A stretch of 59,334 nucleotides of DNA from Alloascoidea hylecoeti. Lineage: Eukaryota. The notes beneath the pieces are model-generated. The model saw only the letters and a program-made list of their open reading frames with translations, was not told where the DNA came from and searched no databases. This document shows positions 4,158 to 58,907 of the stretch, in pieces. The stretch is taken from positions 1,241,794 through 1,301,127 of the forward strand of contig BCKZ01000005.1 in assembly GCA_001600815.1 (NCBI GenBank), read 5' to 3'. The first letter of the stretch is position 1. The number at the start of each line of letters is the position of its first letter. The translations under genes were made by a program, and so were the position numbers.

Positions 4158-4301
4158 TTATCAATTGCAAAAGATTTCTCGCTATAGGTAGTTTTCGTTA
4201 ATTATATGCTGACTAATCTTTATATCATGTGTCCCACCAAACAAATTAAAGGTGTATTCAATTCAATTTCTCAAAAAGAACAAATATATCAATACAATAT
4301 A

Positions 4302-5101
4302 ATGGAAATGGAAGAGATAGATATACCAAAGAAACTTCCTTCAAAAGTAGAATCTCCTGAGATCACATTGATAGAAAAGCTACAAGCTCGACAAAAACAA
4401 TTAGCAGGAGGTTCCAAAAATGTAATTGAATTAACAGCAGAGGAAGCAAAGGTTTTTGAAAAGTTTAACACAAAGCAGGCGATTATCAACAATCGTAAAA
4501 AAATTTCCAAAACTAATAAGACATCTCATAATTCTGATCGAAATGAGGGTACATCAGAAAATGTCGCTAAATCCACAGAAGAAGTGATATCCTACGATGA
4601 TTTAGAACCTACAACCAAAGTGTTTTTCTGGCTCTTAGACAATATGATGTATATTATCCCATTAGTATCAATTCACTTTGTACTTGATGTTTTCGTGTAC
4701 CAAGAATACAGAGAGGAAGTTGACTATAATGCTGTTTTTACTCGGGCACTTAAAGCGTTTATACGTAAGTTTAATAAAAATGTGAAATATACTAAAATAT
4801 TTTAGTTACTAATACTAATATATACATCTTTATGCCAGTTTTTATTACTATTTATGCTACAATTCATAAATATAGGGAGAATCCAATAATCAAGGCTTGT
4901 TTCACTATTATATCAATGGGGGCTGGATGTTATCTGGTCTACTGTGTAAATGAAATGGAATATTTTGCCAAATTATTCCAAGCAGCACCCATTGGAACAT
5001 TAATAGCTTATCTATATATGGAACTTGATTGGTATTTTAGTGCTCTTTCAGCGATAGTTATAGTTGGATGGACCTTATTTAATGATTATACTTTTTTTTG
5101 A
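4302..5101 (+). CDS. Conserved fungal multi-pass membrane protein of unknown function; exons 4302-4764, 4839-5101
   Basis: Two ORFs joined in frame by intron 4765-4838 (GTAAGT..TACTAAT..CAG). Hydrophilic N-terminus, then hydrophobic segments (IHFVLDVFVYQEY; QAAPIGTL). Confidence 0.7.
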
Positions 5102-17715: not shown

Positions 17716-18131
17716 TAATGATCAATAAAACCAATAAAAAATAATAAAAATAATAAGACTAGGCTGTAGCTAGCAAGATTTATTTTGACTTGCTGCTGTT
17801 GAATGTATATCTTTAATCCTTTTTCTTTTAATAAATATTTTCCACCACTATCTTAATCTTCAAAATACTCTTTGAGAACAGATTCATCATGTAATTCTGT
17901 TTTAACAGTATTATAAACATATTGAGTTTAATGATCAATAAAACCAATAAAAAATAATGAAATAAAGACTATAGCTAGCAAGATATATTTTGACTTGCTG
18001 TCATTGAATATATATCTTTAAACCTTTTTCTTTTAATAAATATGTTTTATTTACCATTATCCTAATCTTCAAAATATTCTTTAAAAACAGATTCATCACG
18101 TAATTCTGCTTTAACAATATTATAAACGTAC
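17716..18131. repeat. ~210-bp diverged tandem duplication of the IRE1 3' end and 3'UTR
   Basis: Units start at 17716 and 17929 (taatgatcaataaaaccaataaaaaataat..). The downstream copy encodes YVYNTVKTELHDESVLKEYFED* (17921-17853) versus IRE1 YVYNIVKAELRDESVFKEYFED*. Confidence 0.9.
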
Positions 18132-30332: not shown

Positions 30333-31661
30333 TTATAGACTAACTTCAACCAAGTAATCTAACCTCACTTGACAACCTTTAAATACAATAAGCTCATCAT
30401 TTATAACTCCTGCCTTATCAGCCAGTGCCCAATATGAATCATATCCTTTTGGTGGTTTGGAAGATCTAGCGGTAGTAGGATAGAATGGATTTCCTATAGC
30501 AACACTGGCTAAAAATAAATAAACATGTGGTTTTTTAGTTGAATTTTGAGCCCAATATAAACCATCACAATATTGTAAAGATTTTGTTGATTTATTAGCA
30601 AAATATAAACCATGACCAAAAAGAGCACCAGCTTTTTGACCTGGTGATTGAGATGGTAATAATAAACCTTTTGATAAAATTGATAATAAATTAGCAGTTC
30701 TTGTACCATGCCATAAAGTCATAACATTTGAAATTTCGTTTGAACATTTTAAAAATGGTTCTTGCTGAGATTTTAAAGCAACTTTATAAATATTTGTAAC
30801 TTTTGATTCTGGAATACCATTATATTGATGATTTGATGCTTTTGATTCTTGATATTTTTTAGAAATTTCATCAATTATAGATTTATCATTAATATGTTCA
30901 ATTTCAACATCAAATAATTTTTCAACTTCTTCTTTTGAAGAGGAAGTTTCTTTAGGATCAGGAATTTTTGGATTTTTTTCTAAATCTTCTAAAAGTTTTA
31001 ATGTATCATATAATGCATTACAAATATTCATTTGACATGTCCAATTATTCAAATTATATATCAATGTTTCTTGATCTCTTGCATTTTTCACTTTATTTGG
31101 AATAATAAAATAATATTCATTATTTAAATCAGATAATTTTTCTTCATTTTTAATTATATCATCTAATAATGGTTTAATTTCATTTAAAATATCAACAGCT
31201 TTATTAACACCTTCTTTACTAATAACTCCTAATGGTGTTTTAAAGAGTCCATCTACTGAATCAAATTCAATATTTGTATTGCTTGTAATATTATGAATAT
31301 TCTCAACACTTAATGCTTCAATTAAATGTTTTGATTCATCATCTTTATATACAATTTGTTCTAATGCGATATCCATTGCATTTTTTTTACAATTAATAGT
31401 ATTTCCATTATCTGAAGTAGATTCAATAGTAGCTTTTAGCATTGCTTCCCGATATCCTTTATTCTTCTTTTGTCTTAATAATGTTTCATAATTACGCCTA
31501 CCACCAGTTTTCTTAGAAATAGCTCCCTTAGACCCTACACGTCCATAACGAATGGTAATAGTACCAAGCGCAGATGGATCACGCTCATCATATCTTAATT
31601 CATAGAATTTGTTGTTGTTTGCTTTTGTGTCAAACTTGATAAGCATTTTATGGTCTGACAT
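30333..31661 (-). CDS. Poly(ADP-ribose) polymerase, compact WGR-regulatory-catalytic type resembling bacterial PARPs
   Basis: WGR domain (NNNKFYEL..RYGRVG..LLRQKKNKGY), helical domain (TPLGVISK..LSDLNNEYYFIIP), catalytic H-Y-E triad (LWHGT; FGHGLYFA..KSLQY; NDELIVF..Q.RLDYLVEV). 442 aa, intronless, intact. Confidence 0.92.
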   Translation of the reverse strand: MSDHKMLIKFDTKANNNKFYELRYDERDPSALGTITIRYGRVGSKGAISKKTGGRRNYETLLRQKKNKGYREAMLKATIESTSDNGNTINCKKNAMDIALEQIVYKDDESKHLIEALSVENIHNITSNTNIEFDSVDGLFKTPLGVISKEGVNKAVDILNEIKPLLDDIIKNEEKLSDLNNEYYFIIPNKVKNARDQETLIYNLNNWTCQMNICNALYDTLKLLEDLEKNPKIPDPKETSSSKEEVEKLFDVEIEHINDKSIIDEISKKYQESKASNHQYNGIPESKVTNIYKVALKSQQEPFLKCSNEISNVMTLWHGTRTANLLSILSKGLLLPSQSPGQKAGALFGHGLYFANKSTKSLQYCDGLYWAQNSTKKPHVYLFLASVAIGNPFYPTTARSSKPPKGYDSYWALADKAGVINDELIVFKGCQVRLDYLVEVSL

Positions 31662-32196: not shown

Positions 32197-32556
32197 CTTG
32201 CAGAATTCGTAAGAGACTTGTCTAGTAAAGAAGAAAATGAAAGAATTTTATCGAAAACTAACGCTTTAGAACCAAAATGAAACAAGTTAAGGGGAAAACC
32301 CATACTCGAAATAAATACGATCAAAAAAAGAATAGAAAAGAAGAATTTTTCCAACTTTGAATTAAACAAGGAAAGCGTGGAAAATTGTCTGGAGAATTTA
32401 ATAGGATCAGTATCTTTTCTACATAATATAGTGAATTCTCTTTTTTGTGATAAAATAGTGGAATATACTTTGGTGTGAAGCAATGAATTTGATGCTTTAT
32501 CTGTCAATTTATTAGATAATGAATTCCGGTATGATTTCTTTATCAATTATAAATAA
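32197..32556 (+). pseudogene. Decayed unknown gene convergent with the F-box gene (partner, copy A)
   Basis: 119 codons LAEFVRDLSSKEENERILSKTNALEPK*..V*SNEFDALSVNLLDNEF with only two TGA stops. Homologous to minus-strand 55140-55680 and partly to 49100-49220. Confidence 0.5.
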
Positions 32557-33140
32557 ACCAATTAAATATTCATGTTCTTTTCCATCTGGTAAAACTTTTA
32601 TCACTGTATTTGATTGTAAAGCCAAAATTTTTAGTTTGTTGTAGTTACTAGTAAATGTGTATTGATCCTTTACCATAATTGGTCCTATTATATGAAATTG
32701 AAATTCTTGGATCTTTTGACCAGTTTCAATATTCCAGGAAGTTACTGCTGTAAATGCAGTACGTACTATATAGTATCATTATGAATGGGAACGCTACTGA
32801 TGCAACTTCCTCTCACACGGAATTGAAAATTAAACTGTAGTTCTCCAAACACCAATATAATCATAACCACAACATACAATATAATCATTTACAAACAGAC
32901 ATTATTTACAAGTGATGAAGAATGAGTGCCTCGTGGCATGAAACGGTGTATTGGTTTAAAATCTGGTAGATTCCAAATTATACAAGACGCATCCCATGAA
33001 ACAGAAACCAGATATTTTTCATTATATCCATACAATTAACACCAGCGGAATGAAAGTTGATATCGGTACGTTTTGTTAATTCAAATATTTCCAATTCTGT
33101 TAAATATGTTATTGGAATCCGAGAATCACCTAATACATTT
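32557..33140 (-). pseudogene. F-box/WD40 family internal fragment
   Basis: NVLGDSRIP..TDINFHSAGVNCMDI..SWDASCIIWNLPDFKPIHRF..SWNIETGQKIQEF, with frameshifts; matches 53930-55042. Confidence 0.8.
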
Positions 33141-33364
33141 GGACCCTAAAATGATTATAAAATTAAAGATTGGAGTAAAAAAACTCACCTTTACCAGTTA
33201 TCGATATAAATTATATTATATTTTCATTTCAAACTCAAATGAATTATTCATATAAGACTTTAAAAAGATGACGATAATGAAAGATAGAAAACGGAATTTA
33301 TTTTATTATAAATTTGTTAACTAATTCTTAAAATTCATCGTGAATTGTTATTTACCGAGTAGAA

Positions 33365-33869
33365 ATGTTATTAATGGAATTCCAAACCACGGTATGGGAC
33401 CCGGAACGAAGAACAGTCGCTAACTTTAACGTCCCCCGAATGCCTGTAAGGCCATCAGGGAATTTTTTAAGAAGTTGTTGAGTAAATATGAAAATCTAAA
33501 ATCCATTGCAGAAGATGTGCAGATGACGAACCAGGAAAAAGGGATCTAACTATAATAGATCAAATCACATCTTTAAGAAATGAGATTAAAGACGGATTTA
33601 CACATATGGACTCAGAGTTGAGTTCATTAAAAACAAGCCTTATACGGGTGGAGGATACCCAAAAAAAGAAATGCTTGTCCGATTTTAATAAGTCCTTCAA
33701 TTTTGGAATAAAGCGTTCCTCTTTAGAAGGTTATAGACCTGTGGGGTATTTAGATGAAGAGGGAACATTTGTCATGCCTTTAATGGTAAACTGGAAATTG
33801 ACTGATCTAAATTCCATTGAAAGATTAATTCCAATGAACGGGAGTTTGAGTTCGTTTGGGGTTGGATAG
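33365..33869 (+). pseudogene. Coiled-coil + Mug135/DUF1773-like gene, frameshifted and 3'-truncated
   Basis: MLLMEFQTTVWDPERR.. / KKLLSKYENLKSIAEDVQMTNQE / DLTIIDQITSLRNEIKDGFTHMDSELSSLKTS.. across two frameshifts. 33594-33827 is nearly identical (inverted) to 52060-52292. Confidence 0.6.
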
Positions 33870-35333: not shown

Positions 35334-35462
35334 CAGCAGATGCCGAATGATGTGTAGTACTAAGCCAAAATTATTTATATTTAGAGGCCTTCCGAATTTT
35401 TTCTTGTTCCTTTTCTTTGTTTTACACCTTCTTCAATTTAATACTTCAAAGAAAATTTCATA

Positions 35463-35789
35463 ATGGGTTACGCTTCTGGTTCTGAAAAAAAGGGTGCTAC
35501 TCTATTTAAGACTAGATGTCTTCAATGCCATACAGTTGAGAATGGTGGTCCACACAAGGTTGGTCCAAATCTTAGCGGTGTTTTTGGAAGAAAATCCGGT
35601 AATGCTGCTGGTTACAACTATACCGATGCCAACAAGAGAAAAGGTGTTGAATGGTCTGAACAAACAATGTGGGAATACTTGGAAAACCCAAAGAAGTACA
35701 TTCCAGGTACAAAGATGGCCTTTGCTGGTTTGAAAAAGGCTAAAGATAGAAATGATTTGGTTACCTATTTGAAGAAAGCTTGCTCTTAA
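35463..35789 (+). CDS. CYC1: Cytochrome c
   Basis: [42 protein letters not shown]. Confidence 0.98.
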
Positions 35790-36975: not shown

Positions 36976-39659
36976 CTACTTTTTAGTAGTAAAAGAGGAA
37001 ATCCAATTCTTTAAAAATTTTAAATTAATTCCATGATTATAATATTTTCTATCTTCATCCCATATAATCATATCCATTTCAAGTCTCATTGAATTTAAAT
37101 CACCAAATTCTGGAAATATTCTTGTTTTTTCAATCCCTTTATTTTTTTTATTTAAAATCATCATATTTATATTACCAAATTTATTTGGAAATAATTTATT
37201 TAAAAAAAATAAATTAACTAATTTTGATTTAAATTTTTGAAAATTATTATTATTATTATTATAAAAATTTAAAAAAAGATAAAATTTAAATTTTGAATAT
37301 AATAAACAAATTAAAAAAATAAAAATTGGTCCATAATATGATAAAAATAATGAATTATTCCAACCATTTTTTAAAAAAATTGGAAATCCTGAAAAAATTA
37401 ATAATAATAAATTACAAATTAATGTAAACCAAGCTAAATATGGTTGAAAATAATAATTTAACCAAGAAATTTCAATTGAAGATGATAATCTAATATTTTT
37501 ATCTTTTGTTAAATAATAATATCTTAAATATGATAATGACATTCCAATCCAAGTAATTAACCAAGAATTTGATATAAAACAAATTAAATGTTGTAAAATA
37601 ATTTCTAATGGGAAATGAAGAGCAATAAATGAAACAAATGATAAACACCAACAAATGAAAATAGCAATATATGGTATACCATTTGGGAAACATTTTGATA
37701 TAAATTTTGGTAAATGACCCATTGTTGATAATGAATAAAGTATTCTTGATGCAGAATAAAGTAATGATGATGAATTACAAATTGCAAAAACTGCTAATAT
37801 AGCATTTATAACTGCTCCACCTTTACATAAACCAGCTGAATTTAATGCAACAACCCATGGTGAATGATTACATTTTGAAAATGATGTCCAGTTAATATAA
37901 CCAGTTGAACAACCATTTTGATCATTAATTTCAACAAAACTACCTTCTTTAATAATTGTTGTTGATGATAAAGTTGTATTTTTTAAAATATACCGAAATA
38001 ATCTTAAATCACCAGAATAAATATTTAAACTTACTAAAAAAATTGCTAAAATATAAAAAATAACAATTCTCCAAAATATTAATTTTGTTGTTGATGGTAT
38101 AACTTTTCTTGGATTTCGAATTTCTCCAACACTAATATAAATTAAATCAGTACCTAAATAACAATAAATAGTTATTGAACAACCTAATAAAATTGATAAA
38201 AAATTCCCCATTGAACCATTAATAATTGGTAAATTATTTTCATTTGAAGTTAAATTTAAATTTTTAAATGATAAATCAAAATTTGGTTGAAATAATCCAT
38301 AAATTAATTTTTTTTCAAAAATTGATTTTGAAGAATCCCAATATTTAAAACCAATTTCATTATTTAATGGACTACTACCAGTATTTAAAGTAATCATAAA
38401 TATAATTAATGAAATCATTGAACCAAATACAAAAATCCCAAAAAATGTATTAAAAAAAGTTGTTAATCTTAATGATATTGCATTAATTGAAATATTTAAC
38501 CATATAATAAATGAAATCCATGCACCACTTGTTGGATCAGGTTTACCTAATTGTGGATAATAACTCATTATTATACAAACTCCTATAATTTCAGCAGATA
38601 TTGCTAATGAATATGCTAAAAATCCACATATACCAAAACCTAATGATAAATGAGGTGATACAAATCTTGATACATGTGATGCAACACCACCGCCAACAGG
38701 ATATAAAGTAACTAATTCTGAAAAACCAGATAATGTTGAAAATAATAAAAAACCAATAATTATAAATGATAATAATGTACCAAATGGTCCAGCAATTGTA
38801 AAAACTTGTCCAGAAACAAAAAATAAACCAATTCCAAAACATCCTGAAAATGAATATAATTTTATAAAATTTGATTGGAAATTTCTTAAAGTTTCATGAT
38901 TATTTGGTGGTATATTTGGATTATTAAATAATTTTTCAATTATTAATGATTGATTATTATTTAAATTTAATTCTTTATCATTTATTAAATTATCATTTGT
39001 TAAAATATTTGTTAAATTATTATTTGATAAAATATTTGATGATTTCATATTTGAATTAATTGAAATTTCATCAATTTTATTAATAATATTAATAGTAGTA
39101 GTATCATTTGAATTTTTATTTATATTATGAAATAATTTATTTATTTTTAATCTTGATCTTAAACCATTATCATTAATTAAATTTTCTTTATCATTATCAT
39201 TTTCTTTAGAATTTTTTTGTTTATTTTTATTTATTGTTGAATCATTTAAATGATTTATTGATGATTTAATTAAAACTCCTTTAATTCTACTAACACCAAA
39301 ACCTTTTAATTTTTTTAATGGATATTTTCTTTCATCTAATGTAATTATTTCATCATCATCAAAATTATCATCATCATTAAAATCATTTTCAATAAAATTA
39401 TTTATATTATTATATTCATTAATTTTTTTAAATTCTTGTTGTTTTGATTCATTATAAATATTATCAGGAGAATTTATAGTTGTAAAATAATTTCCATACA
39501 TTTTACTTTGATTTTGTTTAATTTTAATTTTTTTTAATTCACTATAAATTCTTGATCTTAATTCTTCTTCTTTTAAAACTTGTTTATTATATTTTTCAAA
39601 ATCTGTTAATTCATATTCTTCATTAATTTCATCATCAGTATTTGAATTTATTAATAAAC

Positions 39660-39719
<60 letters not shown>

Positions 39720-40464
39720 CATTATTGTTTAAAACTATATCATCTGCTTTAAGTCTTTGTAGTAATACTGATTCTTTTCTACTTAAATTATTTGAACTTG
39801 TTTCAGGTATATCATCATCATTAAAACCATTAATTGTATTATTTGTATTATTACTTTCATCTAATATTTTAGTTAAATAAAATCGATCATTAATAAGTTG
39901 TTCATGAATTTCAGGATCATTTAGCATATATTCAATATTATCATTATCATTATCATCTATTGATATTGATGGAATTTCATTCTTTATTATTAAATTATTA
40001 TTTTTATTTAAATATTCAAGAAAAACTCCTCCTCCTTGTGATTGAGATTTTGATTTTTGTAATTCATTAATATCATTGTTATTTTCGGAATAATTATCAG
40101 ATTCATCAATACATATACTATCATTTGATATATTTGTATTTAAATAAATATGTTTTATACCATCTTCATCAATACTTATTCTTGTATTTTCAAATTCATT
40201 TTCTGTATTATTATCATTTTCAAAATCTGTTATTGAAGTTTGATTCTTAAAATTATTTGTGTGTTTAATCTCAGGAAATAAAGATCTTTTCTTTGAATTG
40301 ATTATATTATCATTTTCTTTATCCTTATCAATATTATAGGAAGTGCCTTGTATTGGTAACCGAGCCTCATTAATATCAAGATTAATATTAAGATGATGAT
40401 AATCTTCTATGTCATCATCATTATCGTTAGGATGAACCACTGTCTGGGGTCCACCATTTATCAT
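36976..40464 (-). CDS. SSY1: SPS amino-acid sensor (APC permease fold with a long Asn-rich N-terminus)
   Basis: About 530-aa N-terminal extension, then GIGLFFVSGQVFTIAGPFG, EIGFKYWDSSKS..YGLF.P.FDL, GEIRNPRKVIP and SPWVVAL. Confidence 0.8.
39661..39726. repeat. (AAT)n microsatellite encoding poly-Asn in SSY1
   Basis: About 20 ATT units. Confidence 0.9.
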
Positions 40465-44423: not shown

Positions 44424-45891
44424 TATATATATATCATATATCATTATCATATTTTTAAAATAAAAAAAATTTATATAATTTATTGTTGAGTTTAAGTTTA
44501 AGTTGGAGGTTATAATTATTACATAATACTTATGTTATTATTATAATCATTTAGATTAATATTAATATTAATATTCGTTCCTTTATAGTTTAATTTATTC
44601 TATTATTTGCTTTTATTTTCAATCTTTTATCTATATCATATTAATATTACAATTGGTATTGTTAATGGATTATCATCATACATATGCATTCAAAGTTGTA
44701 ACAATTAATTTGAAATGATAAAATGACCCTTGCAATTGCAATAGATAATTATGACTGTGTTACTATAGATATGTTGTAGGTGAAACTATTCAATATATGC
44801 TTTATGATAACAAACTTGAACGCTTAACTGATATTGAAATGTGTTCTAAAATATTTTATAGTATATTTTATAGGCCTTATATTAATTCTTCGACGTTGTG
44901 ATATTTATATTATATTTTATGTGTGTAATTGTAAATGAAAAGTAAAAGCATAAGTACATTACCCTGAATTTAGCTAAACTAAAGTTAAATTCTCAATAGG
45001 ATCATTATTTAGATTCCTCGTCACAATTTTTAAAATTCTAATGGAAAATCTTAATTATTATACTCACTTGTATCTTGATTATCATTATGTAACTCTTTTT
45101 TCCACCTGTCCTCAAGTAATCTTCAAATACTTGGAATTGGTAAATCTAAATCAATTCTTCATTTTAACTGTTTTTCATGTTATAGAAAAAAAAAACCATT
45201 CCTGTATCATCAAAGGTTTTTTTTTTTTTTTATTAAGCGCTTATCTTCGGATTTTAAAAATGTCCAAATACTTTTCTATAAAAATCGGGAATTTAATTCA
45301 ATTTTTCAATTATCACTTATCAATTCAATGATCTATCCTTTCTTTTTAGGGGGACCTCCATTAAAACTTGAAAATAAAGAAACTTCAATTACACTGATCA
45401 TTTTAATTTCTAGATCTATAGATATAGCTATCTATTGATGATTAATCACAATTATCAGTTCAGGACATTATCTTTAATACTAATCATTTCTCCTTCTTTT
45501 GATATAACATATTTTTCAATATTATCACTTTTGTTTCCATCACTGGATTCTCCTCAAAATACTCATTTATATCAATATTTAACTTTCTCTTATTTATTCC
45601 CAATGCCCCTTTTTCTGTCTGTCCTATCTATCAAACATGGTTTACCAGCATCAGGTTCCTTTGAGTCTTTCATAAATCGGTCTCCCATCATCTTTCTTCT
45701 CATCTGTCCAATAAATAGTATCGTCAGTGATATATTTAGCCAATTCAGTTTTGTTTAATGTAGAGATTAAAAAATATCAAATCCTGCTTGATTTGACTCC
45801 TCCATTAATTTTGGTAATGATTTGGCATGTTCAGTGGATTGATAGATAAACACGTAATTTCTCTAAAACTCTTGGAAAACAAATTAATTTA

Positions 45892-46400
45892 AGAATTTGG
45901 GATAATGAAACTTTTCGAGGTTTAAAAATTTTAGGTGAACCAAATCTTGAGATATTATGACAATTAGGTATCACATTTTATTTGGGTAGTTCTGCTTGTA
46001 TGGATATTAATGATAAATATCTGGTTTCTAGTTCATGTGATGCGCCTTGTATCATTTAGGAGTTACAAAATTTTGAACCAATAGATCGTCTGATAATGAT
46101 AATACCAACAGAAACTAGTTCTTGTTAAGTTATAAATGGTATCGCTTTAAACAATAATTATATCGTGATGATAATTATATTGAGGGTTGGAACTCAAACC
46201 TTGATAAATTAAAGCATTAACTACAATATAATTTTCAACTCAGTTTAAAAGGCAGATATCTTTTTATCGATGTGTCCAGTCATAATGATATTATATATGG
46301 TAGCGATTTTGGAAATATAAAACCTTGGAATATTGAAACTGGCCAAGTAATCCAAACATCTGATTATATTCGCGTTAAATGCATTACAGGTTCTAAACAC
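45892..46400 (+). pseudogene. F-box/WD40 family fragment (middle part)
   Basis: RIWDNETFRGLKILGEPN..CMDINDKYLVSSSCDAPCII..FEPIDRL..WNIETGQVIQ, with stops and frameshifts. Confidence 0.75.
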
Positions 46401-46480
46401 TAATATACTCATTGTATAAAGCGACACCATTTATACTTGAATAATGATTTTTTTGCGTTATCAGATGTTGTTTTACTGGT

Positions 46481-46840
46481 TTAACATTGAAAAGTTTCAT
46501 TATCCCAAATTCTAATTGTACAATCATGTGAACTACTAGTTATAATCCAGTTTTTATTGTCTCGGCAGAATGATCACTTAATTTATGCTGTGTGAATTCA
46601 CAATTCAATTCTAAAAGAATACGTTCTTTTTATAATTCGTACTATGAATCAGTCTCTGATTAATCATTATTAGTATTTTCAATATTTTTGATCTTGAAAC
46701 TTTGATTTTTTCCATGATTTAGATACTCCTCAAATAAAGTCGTCGGTTGAAAATCTGAAAATATTATAACACATATTTCATAATGAAGATAAGAAACAAA
46801 ATCTATTGTATTCCCAGGATTTTTGTGTAAGGATACGTTG
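46481..46840 (-). pseudogene. F-box/WD40 family fragment (N-terminal part)
   Basis: LHKNPG..YEICVIIF..KSKFQDQKY..SETDS*YELYKER..HKLSDHS..NWIITSSSHDCTIRIWDNETFQC; upstream sequence resembles that of copies 1 and 53782. Confidence 0.75.
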
Positions 46841-47204: not shown

Positions 47205-47781
47205 TGTACTTATTCATAAAATTAAAACTTTATATGCATGTGCTTATACATAGTGAAGCCAGCCGTTGATGCATAGCCAATTACCATCTAACGGCACATT
47301 TGCATTGTAGCAATTAAATTTTAATGTGTTTATCATCTGCAAGTAACAATAACCCCAATAAATTCTTTTTAGATCAGTGGTTATATATCGCGACCAAAGA
47401 CGGCTTCGGGACTATTGAATTTTCAGGCTGCTATCTCCACATCCTCGCTTTGTGATATTATTATTAGTCGTGTTATTTAATTGGAAATAAGCGCCAACGG
47501 TACCGGTGCTAGCGAAGAAAGGAATAATGAACAGTGTGAGGTGTGTACTCCTGGGTTCCTGGGCTCTTCAAAGGTCTTAAAATTTGTAGTTCATATTTCA
47601 TAATACTATGGTTGGTGATATCTTTTAGTGTACACCGGTATATATTCAGTTCTCTACATAGATAATTAAAAGAGTATACTGATCAAAGAAGATTGGAGCT
47701 AGAGATTGAAGCAGGAGTCGATAGGCAACAACCAGAGATTCTTAATCAAGAGCATACCTTTTAAGCGAGAAGAAATCTGGA
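47205..47781 (+). repeat. ~570-bp repeat, left arm of an inverted pair
   Basis: Reverse complement of 50958-51525. By eye, one substitution and one ~9-nt indel near the inner end. Confidence 0.9.
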
Positions 47782-48154
47782 AAACCATAAGAAATAAGGG
47801 AAGCCCAACTAATCCTGATGCATTAAGTGATTATGAAATATTAATGAATATGGACCTTTTTGCGACTTATGGGAGCGATAAAGCTTTCCAGAAGATCATA
47901 TTACTTCAATCATATAGCGAAAAATTGATTGTATTTCCACTTTAGTTTCTTTTTATCCTTTAAATTTGCTATAAATTTCCTTTGTGCCTTGATAATTTAT
48001 CACGAGAAATTAAGTGACTTTCCAATTGTTTATGATCGTCTTTATCATTTGTATTCCATCAATATTTCTATGGATCAAAAGTCTGGAAAGAACTTCAATG
48101 TGTTCAAGCGGGAACACAACCCCAAAAACATAACTTACGGGATATACCATTTGC

Positions 48155-48406
48155 AACAGCTTTCAAACATTAAAAAGTTTCACTATCCCAAATTCTTATT
48201 GTAAAATCTTCTGAATTAAAAAAAAAAATTCAAATTCCAGTTTCTAAAAATTTTACACAAAGATTGTTTCGCCATTAATGACCCCTTAATACTTCATAGT
48301 GTATATTTTTCCTTTTTTCAATTTCTTCCCAGAATGAATCAAGTTCTGAATATTCATTAAAGTATTTCCATTCTTGACATTGATACTTTGATTTCCATAT
48401 CTTATT
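48155..48406 (-). pseudogene. F-box/WD40 family fragment
   Basis: IWKSKYQCQEWKYFNEYSELDS..VLRGH..LCVKF..IRIWDSETF*CLK. Confidence 0.7.
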
Positions 48407-48797: not shown

Positions 48798-48874
48798 TTT
48801 TATAAGGGGAATTGGAAATAAAATCGAAAGGCTTTACACTATTTTCGTTATTCGAAATCTGAAAAATTAAGATT

Positions 48875-48965
48875 TTGGTACTGATTCGAAAAGACTAGCT
48901 ACTTTTACTTTGGAGGTTGATCTTGTTACTTGTGATTTTACCGAGAATCTAAGGTGAAATATATT
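48875..48965 (+). pseudogene. F-box/WD40 family C-terminal fragment
   Basis: TDSKRLATFTLEVDLVTCDFTENLR, followed by the family's conserved downstream sequence. Confidence 0.7.
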
Positions 48966-49278
48966 TAAAATATAATCCATTAAAAATTGAAAATAAAATC
49001 ATTGTTTAAAGAAACTTCAATAAGAGTATTCATTTTAATCGCTAAAGATCTATGACCTATTGATAATTAATCACAATTATCAGTTCAATGCATTTTCTTG
49101 ACTAAAACAACTCTATAATACTGTAATAGAATTCATTAAGAAACAAATGGATAGATAAATCATCAGATTTATTACTTCATAATTATGAATTCATCCGCTA
49201 TTTATCCCACCACAAATAAACAGCGTATAGACACATAAGAATTAAGAATAATACACACATCATTGCATAAATACGAAC

Positions 49279-49650: not shown

Positions 49651-50305
49651 AAGAAATACATGTTGATACATGTATTTACACATAGATATCAATATTCACA
49701 TACATTTAAAGTCAGTGGAGGCATATTTATTAATATTCTCCTGGAAACAACACTATTGCTATCATTAAGGGTATTTATTAAGGCCCTATCTAGGGCCATT
49801 GTTTGGAGATTGTGGAAATGCCATCACTAGATATGGTGTCTCATTACGCACATTTTATGGATATACATATAATGGGAAGTACTTCTGATGATTTATCTTA
49901 TATTTTTTTGTCTTTATCTTAGAAGTTAGTTTTATATGGGAAATACTGCTGTAATAAATAAGTTTTGTTGATTAATTCTTTAATTTGTTGATTGAAATTG
50001 GCGATTTATGTTGCAAACATTTTGACGTTTAGCAGATTACACCTTAAAATTTCAGATGTCGCGCGAGATAAGAATTTACGACAGATATGGTAAAGTGTTT
50101 TTACCCCTTGTCCTGGTAACATTTTTTTGGATGTTACTCCAAAATATTTCACACTCTTTAACTTTGAAGAAATACGCCAATAACTCTTCTAGTGTAACAC
50201 CTACTCAAATTCAAATCCTGAGAACTATAAATTATTCAATACCTTTGAGGAGCTGGCTTGAATTGATATTTCTTTAAGCAATATTTATTTTCAATTTTCA
50301 AGGAA

Positions 50306-50957
50306 TTATAAATATTTCAAATATTTTCTCCTTAATTTTTCAGTAAAATCATAGACAATAATATCACCATCCATAGTTAAAGCAGCTAACATTTTGGAAT
50401 CAGCACCAATTGAATAAGCAGGATGTAAATTTGATTCTTTATGTTTTAATTGTTTTAATAATCGAAAATGTTTTAAAGAATAAATCTTGATAGTACATTC
50501 ATAATTAATAGAAATCATCAAGTAGAAATAATGTAATTGGTACTTCATCTTCTCTGGCATTGGATAAAAGAACTATTGGTTCATTTGATATTAAATCCCG
50601 AACTGTTAGTTTTCCGCCATCAACAACAAATAAGTATCGATCATTTACTTCAATGCATAGTACATAACCATACCGAAATTCTTGCAACATTTGACCAGTT
50701 TCAATATTCCAGGATCTAACAGTTGTAATTCTTCTACTATATATTATACTTTTGGAAATGAAAATCTCTTCAAGGTTCTGTTCTTCAATACGGAATTGAA
50801 AATTAAACTGTAGTTGATGTTGGAAATTATCAAGACTTGATTTCCAAACCCCGATTTAAAAATTATCACAACATACAATATAATCATTATATACAGCGAC
50901 ACCATTTATAGATAAACCATGTTCTGCTGCTCCTGGGATTATGAAACGATCTATTGG
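50306..50957 (-). pseudogene. F-box/WD40 family C-terminal half, truncated by the inverted-repeat arm
   Basis: PIDRFIIPG..VAVYNDYIVCC..WKSSLDNFQHQLQF..SWNIETGQMLQEF..YDFTEKLRRKYLKYL; abuts the repeat at 50958. Confidence 0.82.
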
Positions 50958-51525
50958 TCCAGATTTCTTCTCATATGCTCTTGATTAAGAATCTCTGGTT
51001 GTTGCCTATCGACTCCTGCTTCAATCTCTAGCTCCAATCTTCTTTGATCAGTATACTCTTTTAATTATCTATGTAGAGAACTGAATATATACCGGTGTAC
51101 ACTAAAAGATATCACCAACCATAGTATTATGAAATATGAACTACAAATTTTAAGACCTTTGAAGAACCCAGGAACCCAGGAGTACACACCTCACACTGTT
51201 CATTATTCCTTTCTTCGCTAGCACCGGTACCGTTGGCGCTTATTTCCAATTAAATAACACGACTAATAATAATATCACAAAGCGAGGATGTGGAGATAGC
51301 AGCCTGAAAATTCAATAGTCCCGAAGCCGTCTTTGGTCGCGATATATAACCACTGATCTAAAAAGAATTTATTGGGGTTATTGTTACTTGCAGATGATAA
51401 ACACATTAAAATTTAATTGCTACAATGCAAATGTGCCGTTAGATGGTAATTGGCTATGCATCAACGGCTGGCTTCACTATGTATAAGCACATGCATATAA
51501 AGTTTTAATTTTATGAATAAGTACA
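50958..51525 (-). repeat. ~570-bp repeat, right arm of an inverted pair
   Basis: Reverse complement of 47205-47781. Confidence 0.9.
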
Positions 51526-51948
51526 GTATATCTACAAGTTTCATTAAAGAAAGGAAAAGTTGTTCATTTTTCAACTCTCTTTGCGAATTCCAATCTCAAA
51601 TATTTATGTCGTGCAGAAAATACTGATGTTTCTCAAAATGCCTAAAAATTATTCAGACAACCAATAATTAATCACTCTAACGGAAATCAGAAACATATAT
51701 AACAAAGGATTCCACGTTTCTGCCAAGCAATTTCTTGACAATTATTCATGAGCGGTATAAAAGAGAAGTATTTGTGTTATTTACCGCCAACTATTCATCC
51801 TTTTATTGTCCTTCTCAAGAGTAACGAATTTTTTGATTCACTTGCTGAAATTACCAAAAAAACACTGTATAGTGAACAGCCAAGTTCCAAACCTAGCTAT
51901 GGATAATCATGTTGACAGATATAACAAGTTGACAATTATTACTGAAAG

Positions 51949-52281
51949 TTAATCCAAACACCCTCCTATAGAGTGTATAAGTTGGTCAACTTTTGCTTTA
52001 TTAGTGAGATCAACCTTCACTCCATAACGTTTGCACTTAACATTTATATCATTGGTCGATAATCTTTCAATGGAATCTAGATCAGTCAATTTCCAGTTTA
52101 CCATTAAAGGCATGACAAATGTTCCCTCTTCATCTAAATACCCCACAGGTCTATAACCTTCTAAAGAGGAACGCTTTATTCCAAAATTGAAGGACTTATT
52201 AAAATCGGACAAGCATTTCTTTTTTTGGGTATCCTCCACCCGTATAAGGCTTGTTTTTAATGAACTCAACTCTGAGTCCAT
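51949..52281 (-). CDS. Mug135/DUF1773-like C-terminal domain ORF (110 aa, probably 5'-truncated)
   Basis: N..KR..YRPVGYL..G..LTDLDSIERLSTNDINVKCKRYGV..KAKVDQLIHSIGG fits the recalled Mug135-like C-terminal pattern (L.sie.i..L...e....L..YG.....K..L...iG). Lacks the N-terminal part seen at 33365. Confidence 0.55.
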   Translation of the reverse strand: MDSELSSLKTSLIRVEDTQKKKCLSDFNKSFNFGIKRSSLEGYRPVGYLDEEGTFVMPLMVNWKLTDLDSIERLSTNDINVKCKRYGVKVDLTNKAKVDQLIHSIGGCLD

Positions 52282-52352
52282 ATGTGTGAATCATTATTAT
52301 TAAAGACAGATTTATACATATGGACTCAGAGTTGAGTTCGTTAAAAACAAGC
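52249..52352. repeat. 44-bp-arm inverted repeat (hairpin) over the Mug135-like ORF start
   Basis: Arms 52249-52292 and 52309-52352, 16-nt loop, 3 mismatches. Followed by another scrambled family fragment (MNQERDLNIIEQITTLRNEIRDE, ~52385-52455). Confidence 0.9.
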
Positions 52353-53781
52353 GCTGACCAGATCAAGACAGAAATTATACGGGATGAACCAGGAAAGGGA
52401 TTTAAATATAATAGAACAAATCACAACCCTTAGAAATGAAATTAGAGATGAATAGAAAGAGTTCCAGAGGTGAGTGGCGTTTCCGGAACCCAAACATATC
52501 GCTCATGGCCACCCCAAGCACTTTTGATCATGTGATGAAAAAGAGACAATACGAGGCACACACCCTCGTATTTATACCTTTGTATTTTGTCTGATGGCGG
52601 AATAGAGTCTACTCGGATGGAAAGTATTGAGAGGGAGAAGACTATCCAATCAGATGCTAGATAGAGGATATATTAGTTCGTTAGTTACTTTGCTATATGG
52701 GTATGAGTCCTCCTGTCTATAAAAAAATATGAATAATTTATACCAACTATTAAGGAATTATTGTTAAATAACATATAATTCAGGACTCCTAACTTTTCTA
52801 AATATTACTGGATACAATTCCAGTAAAACAAAAAAGACCTCCTTTTGATACTACAACTAGATTTAGTCGCATTGGATATGATGAGGATGCGAGGAGTTCT
52901 CAAAAAGTGATTGATCCAGCTAACCCCATAACTCGGACAATAATTTTGAGAGCGGATCCATGGCCTTATTGAGTTTACCTTTAATTATGGCTTACTATTA
53001 ATAATTTTTGTCGGATCACTTTTGAGTTTTACCTATTTCAATGACATTGAGATGTGAAAGCTCGTATGCCAACATAATTGTTCCATTTGATTTTCCTCCT
53101 GATTTTTGGATATAGGAGTATAAAGACTGTTCTTTTGAAGAATACCACCTTCAAAAGCTTGAATAAAAGGTATTGCTACCCGTTATACTACTTTTTTGAT
53201 ATGCACCTCTGAAAAAGTTTCCCTAAAAGTTCTCTGTAACAGACGAGTATCGCGTGTTCTTTGTCAGACCCTTTTGTCATTCTTTTATTAGTATCCTACC
53301 TTCTCGCTCATATAACTTAGGCTTTCCGCCAGTCGTCTACAGTATTAGAGTATCAATATATGTATTGAAGCCAGACGCGACTCGCGGTAATCTGGAGAAC
53401 ACCTGCAAATCTACCAGTTTTAGCATAGTTATGGCCTGATACTACCAAATAAACGATATATTTCTTTTCATCTCTAGTCAACCAAATGGTCGAATATGAT
53501 TAAGATTTCAAAAAACTTGCATACATCTATGTAATGCAGGAACTGTATAATATTTAAAATAATAAGTCACCTGAATACTTTCTCCTAAAAATGCCATAAT
53601 AAAATGCCGAAACTCACATACAAGTGACGAAAATGACGCCCGAATGTGCTACTTTAAAGAGAGTTAGTTTGTAGTCATCAACCCATAGTGGACACTTATT
53701 TTTTAATCTACCTGAAGTTCTTACGCCCTTTCTTTTCTTCTTATTTTGTATCGGAACAACTAACGTCTTACCAACTGCAAT

Positions 53782-55042
53782 ATGCCCCTACACGAAGATC
53801 TCAAGTCCGCGGTCGATTTAATAGTCAATCTTCCTGTTGAAATATCCAAGATAATCTTCTTGGATTTGCTACCAAAAACTTTACTTAATTGTAGAAGAGT
53901 ATGTAAATCATGGAAACAAGTAGCTGAAAATGATAATATATGGAAGTCTTAAAGATCAGAAATATTGGAAATACTATAATGAAGATTCGGAGACTGATTC
54001 ATGGTATGAATTATACAAAGAACGTTATCTTTTAGAATTGAATTGGAAAAATGGTATATTCACACAGCATAAATTAAGTGGTCACTCTATCCAAACAAAT
54101 TGTGTTAAATTTTATAAAAACTGGATTATAACTGGTTCACAAGATCGTACAATTAGAATTTGGGATAGTGAAACTTTTAAATGCTTGAAAGTATTAGGTG
54201 ATCCAAATCGTGGGATTTCAACAAAAAATTTATCAAATGCGGAAATGTTGGAATTAAGAAGATATTCCGATATCAAATTTCATTCAGATGGTGTTAATTG
54301 TATGGATATTAGTGACAAATATTTGGTTTCTGGTTCATGGGGTGTGTCTTGCATAATTTGGAGATTACCAGATTTTGAACCAATAAATCATCTGCTAATG
54401 TCAGTAGAAATAGATGATGATACAGTTCTAAATAATGTCATTGTATACAATGATTATATTGTATGTTCTGGTTATTATTATATTGGTGTTTGGAAATCAA
54501 CTCTTGATAATTCTGAACCACTACAGTTTAATCTTCAATTCCGTTTAGATGTAAGTGGAATTGGTGATATTTGCATTCATAATGATATTATATATAGTAC
54601 TGAATATACAACAGTAAGATCCCGCAAAATTGAAAGCGGTCAAATAATCCAAGAGTTTAATTTTAGACAACTAGGACCCATTGCAGTAAAGGATCAATAC
54701 TTAATAGCTGGTAACTACGACACACTAACAGTTTTGGATTTACAATCAAATACAGTGATGAAGGTTTTACCATATGATGAAGCACATGAACAACTTATTA
54801 GTATATTTATAATTGATAATAAAATCATTTATGTTAATTATGATTGTACTATTAAGATTTGGAATTTAAATGATTTAAAATTATTCAATAAATTTGTAAA
54901 TTTAGAACATTTATTAAATACACGTTCAGGTCGTTCAATTTGTGCTGATTCGAAAAGACTAGCTCCTTTTACTATAAATGGTGATTTTGTTATCTATGAT
55001 TTTACTGAAAATTTAAGGAAGAAATATTTAAAACATTTATAA
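53782..55042 (+). pseudogene. F-box/WD40 protein, near-intact (one frameshift after the F-box)
   Basis: ATG 53782 MPLHEDLKSAVDLIVNLPVEISKIIFLDLLPKTLLNCRRVCKSWKQVAENDNIWKS*. An apparent 5-nt deletion at ~53950 relative to paralogs (WKSKFQ[DE]QKY); WD40 frame open 53930-55042. Confidence 0.85.
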
Positions 55043-55139
55043 TTGAGTGTCTGAAAATAAACATTGCCGCCTAAAGAAAATTTAATCTATCGATAATTAA
55101 TCATAGTTAGCAGTCCATAATACGATATTTAAACCCCGC

Positions 55140-55775
55140 TCTAAAATTCCAAAGGAATTCATCATCTAATAAATAGATTGATGAAGCATCAAATTCATTG
55201 CTTCACATACATATGATTCATTCTTCTATTTTATCACTCTAGAAAGAAAATGCGTTTATGCAAGAAATACAAATCTGGGTTATAGTTTCAAAAGAATAAA
55301 AGAAGTACTACAACTGATTCAAGATTAACTGATAGTGTATAACCCATCTTTTTCAGGCACTACCTCTAAAGAAAAGTGAATTCACTAAATATTCTTTCTA
55401 TAGAAAAACTACTGATCCTACTAGACTTTCCTTGTTTTAATTTAAAGTTGGAGAGATTTCTTTTCTATTCTATTTTTGATCGTATTTATTTTGAGTATAA
55501 TATATTATATGTTTTCCTCTTAACATGTTATTACCAACCGCTGCTTCATTAAGCATTTATGCCTTGCTTCTGCTACCGTTACTTAATTGTTTCATTTTGG
55601 TTCTAAAGATTTAGTTTTCGCTAAAATTCTTTCATTTTCATCTTTACTAGAAAACTCTCTTACGAATTCTCCATCAAGCTAAGCAGGTTGGTTGTCTTGT
55701 GGTGATGGTGTATCCAAAGAAATAAATTCACCGTATACTCGTCTAAAATGGTCAAATCCCAGTATGAAAATGGAC
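55140..55775 (-). pseudogene. Decayed unknown gene convergent with the F-box gene (partner, copy B)
   Basis: ..GEFVREFSSKDENERILAKTKSLEPK*..INTIKNRIEKK..*SNEFDASSIYLLDDEF; homologous to 32197-32556. Confidence 0.5.
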
Positions 55776-56239
55776 ATGTTTCACTGCAAACTACAACTCA
55801 TTTAAATTAAACTTGGGGTTTATCAATTTTTACTCTTATTTTTGATAAATTGTTAGTTTTAATTTTGTATAATTTCAAATAAATTTCTTAATCTCATCCT
55901 TTTCAGGTAACTACCCGATTTAGTTTTAATCAAGTTTCCGTCGCCAAATGTCCGTTTTATTTAACAAAAGTGAACATCTTGTTCAATCTTAGATGAAAGT
56001 TTCAACTTGACTATACAACCTCAATTTGTTAACCAAAATTTAATGAAGTAGTTACCGATAATTCTTCAATACGGCCTAAATTAAGCGGAGGCTAAGGGCA
56101 TATATAAAGATTATTATCTTGTGATAATTTGAAAACAAATAGAAATATTTTATTTTTAGATTACTCAACGCTCTTTAACTATTATGAGATTAGATTAAAT
56201 CTAAANAAACAGTTTTATATCTAATTTTGAAAATAAAAT

Positions 56240-58907
56240 TTATANTACTTCACCATTNAACCATTCAATTGAAAAGGGTACACAATCATAAGGCATATCT
56301 AAGTCAGCTGTATCAAAATGTGAAATATCATCCATATTTATATCAGTATCATCATTAATATTGACATTTCCATACATTCCATTAGTATTATTTGAGTTAT
56401 TATTATTATTATGGTGTTGTAATTGATCGGAGAAATTTGAATCAGCNAAATAGGAAAATTGAAAATGTCTGGCCATGGGACTAGTAAGATAGTGATCAGT
56501 ATTGTTCACCGAATTAAACTCATGAATTATATTACAAATATTAGCTGTATTTTGCGATTCATGATTTTCATTGCCATTGTCAGTTTCAATTTCATTCTTT
56601 TTGTTTAAATTTGTATTAAACAAGTTGNCATTAATAATATTATCTGACATCAAAGAATCTATTTTACTACCTGCTAAATTAATCTCCTTGTTAGCGCTAA
56701 TGTTGTAAAAAGAATTAAACTCTGCTACTGAACCGAAATCATCATCAATAGTATTATTATTAAAAACAACTTTATTTTGAGATGTTTTCACTATAAGTGA
56801 TGCGACAAACGATATTNTCCGTGCGTAAAAATAAACGAGTGAATATCTATTTGTAACCTTTTCAAGTTCCAATATTACCGACATTAACGATCGTTTTGAA
56901 GCTTCTCGAAATTCATCTGATCTCAAAATTTCGTTTCCTGATTCTGTTGTTGATGATACACCATCTGGATTTGATTTATAAATAAAATCAAGACTCGGTA
57001 NAGAATATAAATATTCAGGTATTTGACTGCGTAATAAAATTGATACAATAAACATGCTTGCTTTTAATACTGCTTTTAATAAAATTGGTGATATTATTGA
57101 TAAAACTCCATAACCAAAATATTCATTACAATTATTTAAATGTTCAAGTGAAAAATAGAAAAGAACCATTGTAGTTAGACTTGCATATCTGAAATATTTA
57201 TTATTTAATTCTTTTTCTTCTGGTCCAGTATTAAGATATAAAATATAATAAGATGTATGAATATATCCTAAGATCTCAATCCTTAGGTTAATTAATCGCA
57301 ATCTTTTATTTCTATTTAATAAATCTTCATCTGTTATACGATGAAATAGATCTGTAAATGATGGTTTAGTTTCCAAAAGAAAAATTAACATTTTTTCNGT
57401 TATTGATTCTAGATTTGATCTTCTTGCTTTTATTTTCAAGTTCAATGATAGCTGAATTGATTCTCTTACATATTGACATACTGTATATAGCAATTGATAA
57501 TACTCGACCTCTGCTTGAAATATTGGATCATTCTCGACGGATTCAAATAATTTCAAAGGACTTGTATCACTGTAATTGGTATTCAAAATTAGTGGCGTAC
57601 CCATATCGGATGATTGCAGTGTATCAGTCATTAGTACGATTGTCCATATTTGTCTCCGTTGATATTTAAACGTTTCACTATAATCGCTATTAATTATATC
57701 AGGATCTCTGTTTAAGTCCAACGAAAGAGCAATTTCACATATTCGACCTAATATTATTGAATTGTTTTCCATACATACTTTCTCACCATATTCTGGTGCA
57801 ACCTCATAATAAAATTTCAACAGTATTAAATACCATATCAATTCAAAAGAATTTTTTGATAAAAATGAGAATGATACAGCTCTTTGTGAAAGAGAAGCAT
57901 ATTCTTCTGATATTTCAATATCATTATCATAAATTGGTTTCAAATGTTTATATCTGGGTAGCGATAAAAAATAATTTGGATCACCATTCATATAAGGTAA
58001 AGATATATAACCAATTCTTAAAAATAATAAGAAACTAGCAAGTAATATGAATTCATTTGAATTATCAATACCACCAACTAAATTAATCTTAAATTTATAG
58101 TATTGTGAGAATTTCATTGCTTTTAAGTCTAAAATCGAATTGAATGAGTCAATTAAAGATCCACCTTGATATGATGGCGATAGAATCCTAATAACAAGTA
58201 CAGCATTTTTCAAAATTAAATCACAGATATATTTAGAAGGTAATAACTTTTCAACTTCGGTAATTAATGATCTCTTTTTACTATAATCATTGAGAATAGA
58301 GTGACTGCTATTACCTATAGTATCATAACCATGAAGCAAACCCTCGCTACCACGATCATTGACACCAAATATATTGTTCGTTAGCTCAGTCTCAATGAGG
58401 ATTGTTGATTTGAATGCAGCATCTATTATATTTTTAAAAATGGGATCTAATGAAGATATAAAAGTCCTACTCGTTGCAAAATGAGTTGTATGATCTTGTT
58501 CTATATCCAAAATTTGGATTTTAGTTGATAAATCTAAAATAGGATCCTTCTTGCTATTTTCATTATGATTCTCATTGATAAAGTATATTTCTTGTTTCCC
58601 CCTCTGTTTTTCTTTCTGTTTCAATTTTGACTCCAAGCTTTTAATTTCTTCTTTTAGTATAGAATTAATCATTCTAAAATCTTCTTCAACATTAACTTCA
58701 TCCTTAGTTTTGTATCTACAATAGTTAGAAAACCCGATATTTGAGCAATTTCCACATTTTGGCTTTTTCCCATCGCACTGAATTGATACAATAAATGTTA
58801 ATCTTCATGTGTCGTTTAATTGAGCTGGAGAATCTTACTTTCACGTGACGCTGCCTACAGGGACAGCAAGCTATAGCTTTTCGATGACTTCCCTTGGAAT
58901 AAACCAT
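56240..58907 (-). CDS. Zn(II)2Cys6 transcription factor; exons 58907-58839, 58777-56240
   Basis: Spliced ACCPCRQRHVK/CDGKKPKCGNCSNIGFSNYC (intron 58838-58778, GTAAGA..TTAAC..CAG); middle homology region LDLNRDP..QRRQIW..D..S..GTPL. Confidence 0.9.

Follow-up and report, generated by a model that had tools for sequence, protein, structure and literature searches.

Does the open reading frame at positions 51949 to 52281 of this stretch of DNA (59,334 nt, referred to here as the window) belong to a killer meiotic driver of the Tdk1 type? A first-pass annotation had named it a candidate for one, stating that mug135 has been renamed tdk1 and that its product is built of an N-terminal domain (NTD), a stalk, and a C-terminal domain (CTD). 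Both statements are found in the literature. The gene mug135 (SPCC330.04c) is now tdk1, and Tdk1 comprises an NTD (residues 1 to 111), a stalk (112 to 275), and a CTD (276 to 357), with DUF1773 at 268 to 340; a cryo-electron microscopy structure with Tdk1(211-357) is available as PDB 9JA5 (PMC11551393). The further premise of a toxic CTD conflicts with PMC11551426, which reports that Tdk1C binds Bdf1 and has no toxicity when expressed alone. Toxicity is attributed there to Bdf1 binding together with the formation of foci through an oligomerizing N-terminal region, and the antidote is described as the full-length protein (PMC11551426).

Three fragments of one gene

The reading frame exists as it had been described, on the reverse strand, with 110 amino acids from ATG to stop and the C-terminal end ...KRYGVKVDLTNKAKVDQLIHSIGGCLD. 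From stop to stop it covers 113 codons (51949-52290). Base composition predicts about 0.34 open frames of at least 113 codons by chance in a window of 59,334 nt, so the length of this frame, copy B, is not significant by itself. Copy B is a real gene remnant because a near-identical second copy, copy A, is present. The two loci lie 18,232 nt apart and share a tract with exactly 2 mismatches (99.1% identity), at 33599 and 33810, the latter altering codon 69 (Asn in copy A, Asp in copy B). The annotation had counted two copies about 18 kb apart with some 230 nearly identical bp, and the 233 nt found here bear this out.

Copy B is truncated at its 5' end. Its Met is an internal Met in the frame of copy A, and stop codons lie immediately 5' of it. 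A tblastn search within the window found no homology to the N-terminal part or to the first helix near copy B. Copy B had been described as an almost bare CTD; it has no NTD, and of the stalk it retains only the end. The Saccharomyces cerevisiae meiotic promoter motifs MSE (CRCAAAW) and URS1 (GGCGGC) do not occur in the 465 nt upstream of copy A or in the 619 nt upstream of copy B, which is uninformative in a lineage distant from the source of the consensus.

Copy A can be read over three frames. Frame 1 (33344-33478, with an ATG at 33365) gives a 38-aa N-terminal piece, MLLMEF...PRMPVRPSGNFLRSC, that contains PRMPVRP. Frame 2 (33430-33546) gives a helix piece, ...IREFFKKLLSKYENLKSIAEDVQ..., and frame 3 (33492-33866) gives the stalk and a partial CTD, ...DDEPGKRDLTIIDQITSLRNEIKDGFTHMDSELSSLKTS.... 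Reading through the copy takes two frame changes, one within 33430-33478 and the other within 33492-33546. The order of N-terminal piece, PRMPVRP linker, heptad helix, and CTD is legible only across these three frames, and the linker holds no PP dipeptide, only PRMPVRP. The stalk had been called heptad-like; in copy A (IIDQITSLRNEIKDGFTHMDSELSSLKTSLIRV), the hydrophobic residues from 2 to 30 are spaced 3,3,4,4,3,4,3,4, which is a heptad pattern. Similarity to copy B stops at 33827, and the 13 codons that close copy A beyond this point are unrelated to copy B. Downstream of copy A, tblastn detected no trace of the last ~36 codons of the CTD, and this missing 3' part is the part of copy B that gives the Pfam match described below.

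Fragment B' shows homology to positions ~33466-33600 of copy A (94% over a 54-nt repeat match; tblastn). It matches the tail of the first repeat, the linker, and the head of the second repeat of copy A and has a 2-nt frame change of its own at ggaaaggga. B and B' are joined head to head (Table 1). This junction may have arisen through inversion of a 5' stalk segment, which would have left two similar repeat units of the stalk pointing in opposite directions.

No intact full-length coding sequence was found in the window: copy A carries two frame changes and is missing its 3' end, copy B is truncated at its 5' end, and B' is an inverted fragment. The single NTD-stalk-CTD protein that had been assembled from this region combines three pieces from two strands and is encoded at no single locus.

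Table 1. Positions in the window of the three fragments, the sequences they share, and the adjoining genes
Feature	Position	Strand	Description
Copy A	33365..33869	+	Pseudogene; readable from the N terminus to the middle of the CTD, over three frames
A/B shared tract	33595..33827	+	Corresponds to 52292-52060; 233 nt, 2 mismatches
Copy B	51949..52281	-	~30 residues of stalk end (MDSELSSLKTSLIRVEDTQKKKCLSDFNKSF) and ~80 residues of CTD
Fragment B'	52290..52452	+	Inverted stalk piece, IKDRFIHMDSELSSLKTSADQIKTEIIRDEPGKG followed by LNIIEQITTLRNEIRDE in another frame
B/B' head-to-head junction	52249..52352		44-nt arms, 52249-52292 and 52309-52352, 93% complementary; 16-nt spacer
F-box/WD40 gene, divergent to copy B	53764..55042	+	WD40 by Pfam; F-box (53764-53952) out of frame with the 370-aa WD40 ORF (53930-55042)
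Decayed F-box/WD40 copy, divergent to copy A	32199..33136	-	76-92% identical to 54213-55673

Resemblance to the Mug135_C domain

Copy B was compared with 24,736 Pfam models. The best match was Mug135_C (PF08593), with an E value of 0.019 and 15.6 bits, aligning residues 65 to 106 with positions 35 to 80 of the 82 in the model. The Mug135-like assignment proposed earlier has weak support: this family comes first, but below the PF08593 gathering cutoff of 23.8 bits. Copy B is not filed as an established member of PF08593/IPR013902. The same residues match XLF almost as well (E of 0.055). In XLF the head precedes the stalk. The XLF N-terminal domain was rejected as an identification, since the domain found here follows the stalk, unlike that of XLF.

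The control set consisted of the 46 other stop-to-stop ORFs of 80 to 150 aa in the window, 37 of which are neither genes nor gene relics. None of the 46 matched Mug135_C. Three of the 37 apparently nongenic ORFs reached an E value of 0.02 or lower for an unrelated family (PSS, TM225, and MUN), and an E value of 0.019 for Mug135_C is for that reason weak on its own.

In the ESM-Atlas, the neighbors of copy B were fungal clusters, all at 0.85 to 0.88, under the 0.9 level for a lead, and recognition of copy B was 2290, slightly under the 2300 mark. In the cluster at rank 3, 16% of the members carry PF07957 and 10% carry PF08593; in the cluster at rank 9, PF08593 is present in 42%. The 105-aa frame of copy A, which is without the last 36 residues, gave no usable match. 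The loss of the Atlas signal in copy A indicates that the Pfam and Atlas signals rest on the same ~45 residues.

Pairwise searches returned no relatives. With phmmer, no relative of copy B was found among 1.84 billion representative proteins at an E value of 1e-3 or lower; the only two matches, both repeat proteins (one bacterial, of 463 aa, the other of 1555 aa), were judged spurious on inspection. Word-indexed homologue searches with the 110-aa ORF, covering longer proteins and those of near length, gave no match, and none of the 270 pattern matches from a scan of JGI metagenomes was confirmed by tblastn. A phmmer search of the PDB at E values up to 10 had no match to copy B, a result that covers Tdk1 if 9JA5 is in the copy searched. 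The single-sequence AF2 model of copy B had a mean pLDDT of 37.2 and was unusable for fold comparison. The layout of the gene, the restriction of the family to fungi, and its tendency to leave truncated copies agree with the assignment independently of these signals. Overall, copy B is fairly likely to be related to the Mug135_C/Tdk family.

Duplication history and genomic setting

Both Tdk-like loci adjoin an F-box/WD40 copy in divergent orientation. The region had been described as recently duplicated, and this holds for the 233-nt tract, at 99.1% identity; the flanking F-box/WD40 genes are just 76-92% identical. This difference fits better with an older duplication of the gene pair, after which the short tract was probably homogenized by gene conversion, or copied again, in recent time. 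The picture of a multicopy family with fast turnover finds support in the three fragments within 59 kb and in the contrast between this tract and its flanks.

The F-box/WD40 family itself has at least eight copies or fragments in the window, apparently all damaged (828-2217, 32199-33136, 45853-46355, 46480-46708, 48134-48400, 48874-49044, 50262-50957, and 53764-55042). The best copy is that at 53764-55042. The copy at 828-2217 has an in-frame TGA where its paralogue has Trp, and near 1843 it also changes frame. Programmed frameshifting conserved between F-box and WD40 was rejected as an explanation, because the two copies need different shifts (+1 versus -1/+2) and one contains an in-frame stop. 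A 552-nt inverted repeat (47205-47756 and 50974-51525) is 100% complementary by repeat search and 99.8% by blastn. Its arms contain no long ORF and enclose 3.2 kb of WD40 debris, and it points to a recent inverted duplication in the gene-poor region at 44.4 to 53.9 kb. No tRNA genes that could serve as rearrangement landmarks were found in the window.

The window is AT-rich, with about 19 to 36% GC per 2-kb window. The genes on both sides of the Tdk-like loci encode an SSF transporter, a JmjN-ARID-PHD-JmjC protein, IRE1, SUA5, a Sir2-family protein, PARP, an amino-acid-permease-type transporter, ISY1, and a trypsin-like protease. The closest named relatives of ISY1 are from Lipomycetaceae, at no more than 46% identity, so that the collection searched contains no near relative of this ascomycete host. 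The nearest PDB chain to IRE1 is that of S. cerevisiae, at 373 bits; the IRE1 chains that come next, presumably human, score about 300. Of the CTG codons of IRE1, two of the three in the aligned part sit at the DLG motif and at a conserved Leu (a fourth, codon 746, is outside the alignment), and CUG is therefore probably read as Leu. A gene with WGR, PARP_reg, and PARP-catalytic domains lies at 30333-31661 (-), and the JmjN-ARID-PHD-JmjC gene lies at 9924-12503 (-); such genes are unusual for Saccharomycetaceae-type yeasts. Together with the ISY1 identities, they suggest a deep-branching ascomycete lineage. The annotation had spoken of a budding yeast, which is plausible for this ascomycete host with its ISY1 nearest to Lipomycetaceae.

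Several other features of the window were recorded. An uninterrupted cytochrome c ORF at 35442-35786 (+) came up in the control scan (Pfam Cytochrom_C, E of 1.2e-13). A 199-aa ORF with no Pfam match (4206-4805, +) is directly followed by a 101-aa DUF7719 frame (4796-5098; E of 6.1e-15); the two may belong to a single gene (4206-5098, +) that a short intron or a change of frame interrupts. A long (ATT)n run on the plus strand at 39620-39730, where local GC is 19%, is an Asn run in the minus-strand ORF 36976-40464 and lies in the 530-residue N-terminal extension of the amino-acid-permease-type transporter encoded there. A tandem direct repeat of ~205 nt (17716-17918 and 17929-18127; 86% identity) runs across the 3' terminus of the IRE1 ORF, at 18062. 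An 810-aa ORF at 56240-58672 (-) matches no Pfam family at an E value of 1e-5 or lower.

Probable decayed relics and known Tdk systems

We propose, with moderate confidence, that copies A and B and fragment B' are decayed, nonfunctional relics of a Tdk-like gene. The ancestor would have been a small intronless fungal gene of roughly 185 to 190 codons. It would have encoded a short NTD, a proline-containing linker, a heptad helix of ~85 residues made of two similar repeat units, and a CTD of ~80 residues, probably distantly related to the Mug135_C/IPR013902 domain found in the Tdk family. The ORF at 51949-52281 would be the 3' third of one copy of this gene, starting at an ancestral internal Met, and its frame would still be open because the fragment is young. 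The designation as a candidate killer meiotic driver is unsupported for these copies, as all three pieces are broken or truncated. Copy B is without the N-terminal region that Tdk1 needs for autoinhibition and for toxic foci, and neither killing nor drive is therefore expected of it; since the corresponding fragment of Tdk1 is harmless, a bare C-terminal ORF makes no credible killer. Pseudogenes account for 49 of 93 tdk loci in Schizosaccharomyces, and a decay path from driver to resistant allele to pseudogene has been proposed (bioRxiv 10.64898/2025.12.28.696746). The relics would fit this path.

A lineage-specific coiled-coil gene unrelated to Tdk/Mug135, with a chance match over ~45 residues, would explain why the Pfam match is below threshold with XLF nearly tied on the same residues and why no pairwise relative appeared in 1.84 billion representatives or the PDB. 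It would also sit easily with 3 of 37 junk ORFs reaching an E value of 0.02 to some family, with every Atlas score being below 0.9, and with recognition stopping at 2290 against a mark of 2300. However, the best of the 24,736 models is that of a family described as fungus-only, with its domain placed C-terminally behind a long helix (bioRxiv 10.64898/2025.12.28.696746), and the same arrangement is seen here. The Atlas neighbors indicate the same family, though from the same ~45 residues as Pfam, and the multicopy, pseudogenized state is a hallmark of the Tdk family. We therefore regard an unrelated coiled coil as unlikely, while giving it appreciable weight.

Other readings would change what the fragments do, or whether they are broken at all. 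The 110-aa ORF could be expressed and functional, either as an antidote-like or dominant-negative fragment that coassembles with an intact paralogue or as a toxic bare CTD. Such a role would suit a frame that has stayed open for 113 codons where about 0.34 are expected, with a TATAAAT 35 nt upstream of its ATG, and a reconstructed, nondriving tdk allele in Schizosaccharomyces is reported to have still conferred resistance (bioRxiv 10.64898/2025.12.28.696746). We consider this improbable: the internal Met start with stops immediately upstream marks the ORF as a by-product of truncation, Tdk1C alone is reported to be nontoxic with a full-length protein as the antidote (PMC11551426), and no protein with the sequence of the ORF is in the collections searched, whereas the ISY1 of the window did turn up. 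With just 2 differences from copy A, a selection test is impossible. It is a similarly long shot that a living drive family persists in this deep-branching yeast. An intact master copy elsewhere in the genome would then have supplied both old loci with the 233-nt tract in recent time, the ORF for helix and CTD would be retained as an antidote-like or resistance fragment capping the assemblies of the intact driver, and the divergent F-box/WD40 gene would belong to the same module, e.g., as a host or driver factor controlling protein stability. Mis-assembly of repeats, with one or two intact genes really present and the frame changes, inverted junction, and 99% tract being artifacts, is very improbable. 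The region is rich in repeats, including the near-perfect 552-nt inverted repeat; the first frame change of copy A falls in an interval with a T6 run; and the lesions rest on one assembly. However, 12 other ORFs of the window (22,416 nt, containing 198 homopolymer runs of at least 5) are uninterrupted, so the frame changes in copy A and B' are unlikely to be assembly errors. The second frame change of copy A sits where A and B' differ by nonhomopolymer indels, and the in-frame TGG-to-TGA stop in the neighboring gene family shows true decay in these repeats. The sequencing runs of three studies also contain 0.79 to 0.95 of the words sampled from 51000-56000; no RNA run is among those listed as containing them.

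If the homology with Tdk holds, the relics would be additional Tdk/IPR013902-type genes in decay, here in a yeast lineage remote from Schizosaccharomyces. The family is described in the literature as old and patchy, with a high turnover, and the relics would fit this description. IPR013902 proteins are reported from 32 of 130 Saccharomycotina species, with none in the Saccharomycetaceae as given in these sources (PMC11551393; PMC11551426; bioRxiv 10.64898/2025.12.28.696746). Lipomycetaceae are reported to carry DUF1773 proteins (PMC11551393), and homologues outside Schizosaccharomyces, those of budding yeasts included, have already been proposed as possible killer drivers (PMC11551393; bioRxiv 10.64898/2025.12.28.696746). 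The novelty of the present fragments is accordingly low: they would at best be new decayed members, as both the presence of the family in budding yeasts and its possible role in drive are already published. Their practical value is that of a pointer, since intact paralogues in the full genome would be real candidates.

Three groups of known proteins can be set beside the relics. Near copy B lie DUF3294 (PF07957) Atlas clusters of 149 to 171 aa, one of which also carries PF08593; at 0.85 to 0.87 these are leads only. Their size is close to that of the proposed ancestral gene, and copy B has no Pfam match to PF07957 at E values up to 10. The Tdk family (tdk1, tdk210, and tdk203; PF08593/IPR013902) is fungal, like the relics, and is composed of a small N-terminal part, a linker, a long helix, and a CTD of ~80 residues, an order legible in the relics only across the three frames of copy A; its domain is the best Pfam match of the relics, below threshold. 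Tdk drivers have an N-terminal region with a Z-shaped domain and a PP motif at the linker, in contrast to the PRMPVRP of the relics with no PP dipeptide, and Tdk1, at 357 aa, is about twice as long as the proposed ancestor. The relics lie between housekeeping genes, with no sign of a chromosome end. A genome typically has several Tdk genes, of which many are pseudogenes, and the relics are likewise multicopy and all broken. The IPR013902 proteins of budding yeasts (Debaryomycetaceae, Pichiaceae, and Lipomycetaceae) pass the InterPro/Pfam signature, whereas copy B does not; they too are multicopy, in Saccharomycotina hosts, a type that is plausible here. Debaryomyces hansenii has nine, many of them without an NTD (bioRxiv 10.64898/2025.12.28.696746). 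A substantial fraction of the budding yeast proteins is without this domain, a state that the authors read as pseudogenization and that copy B shares.
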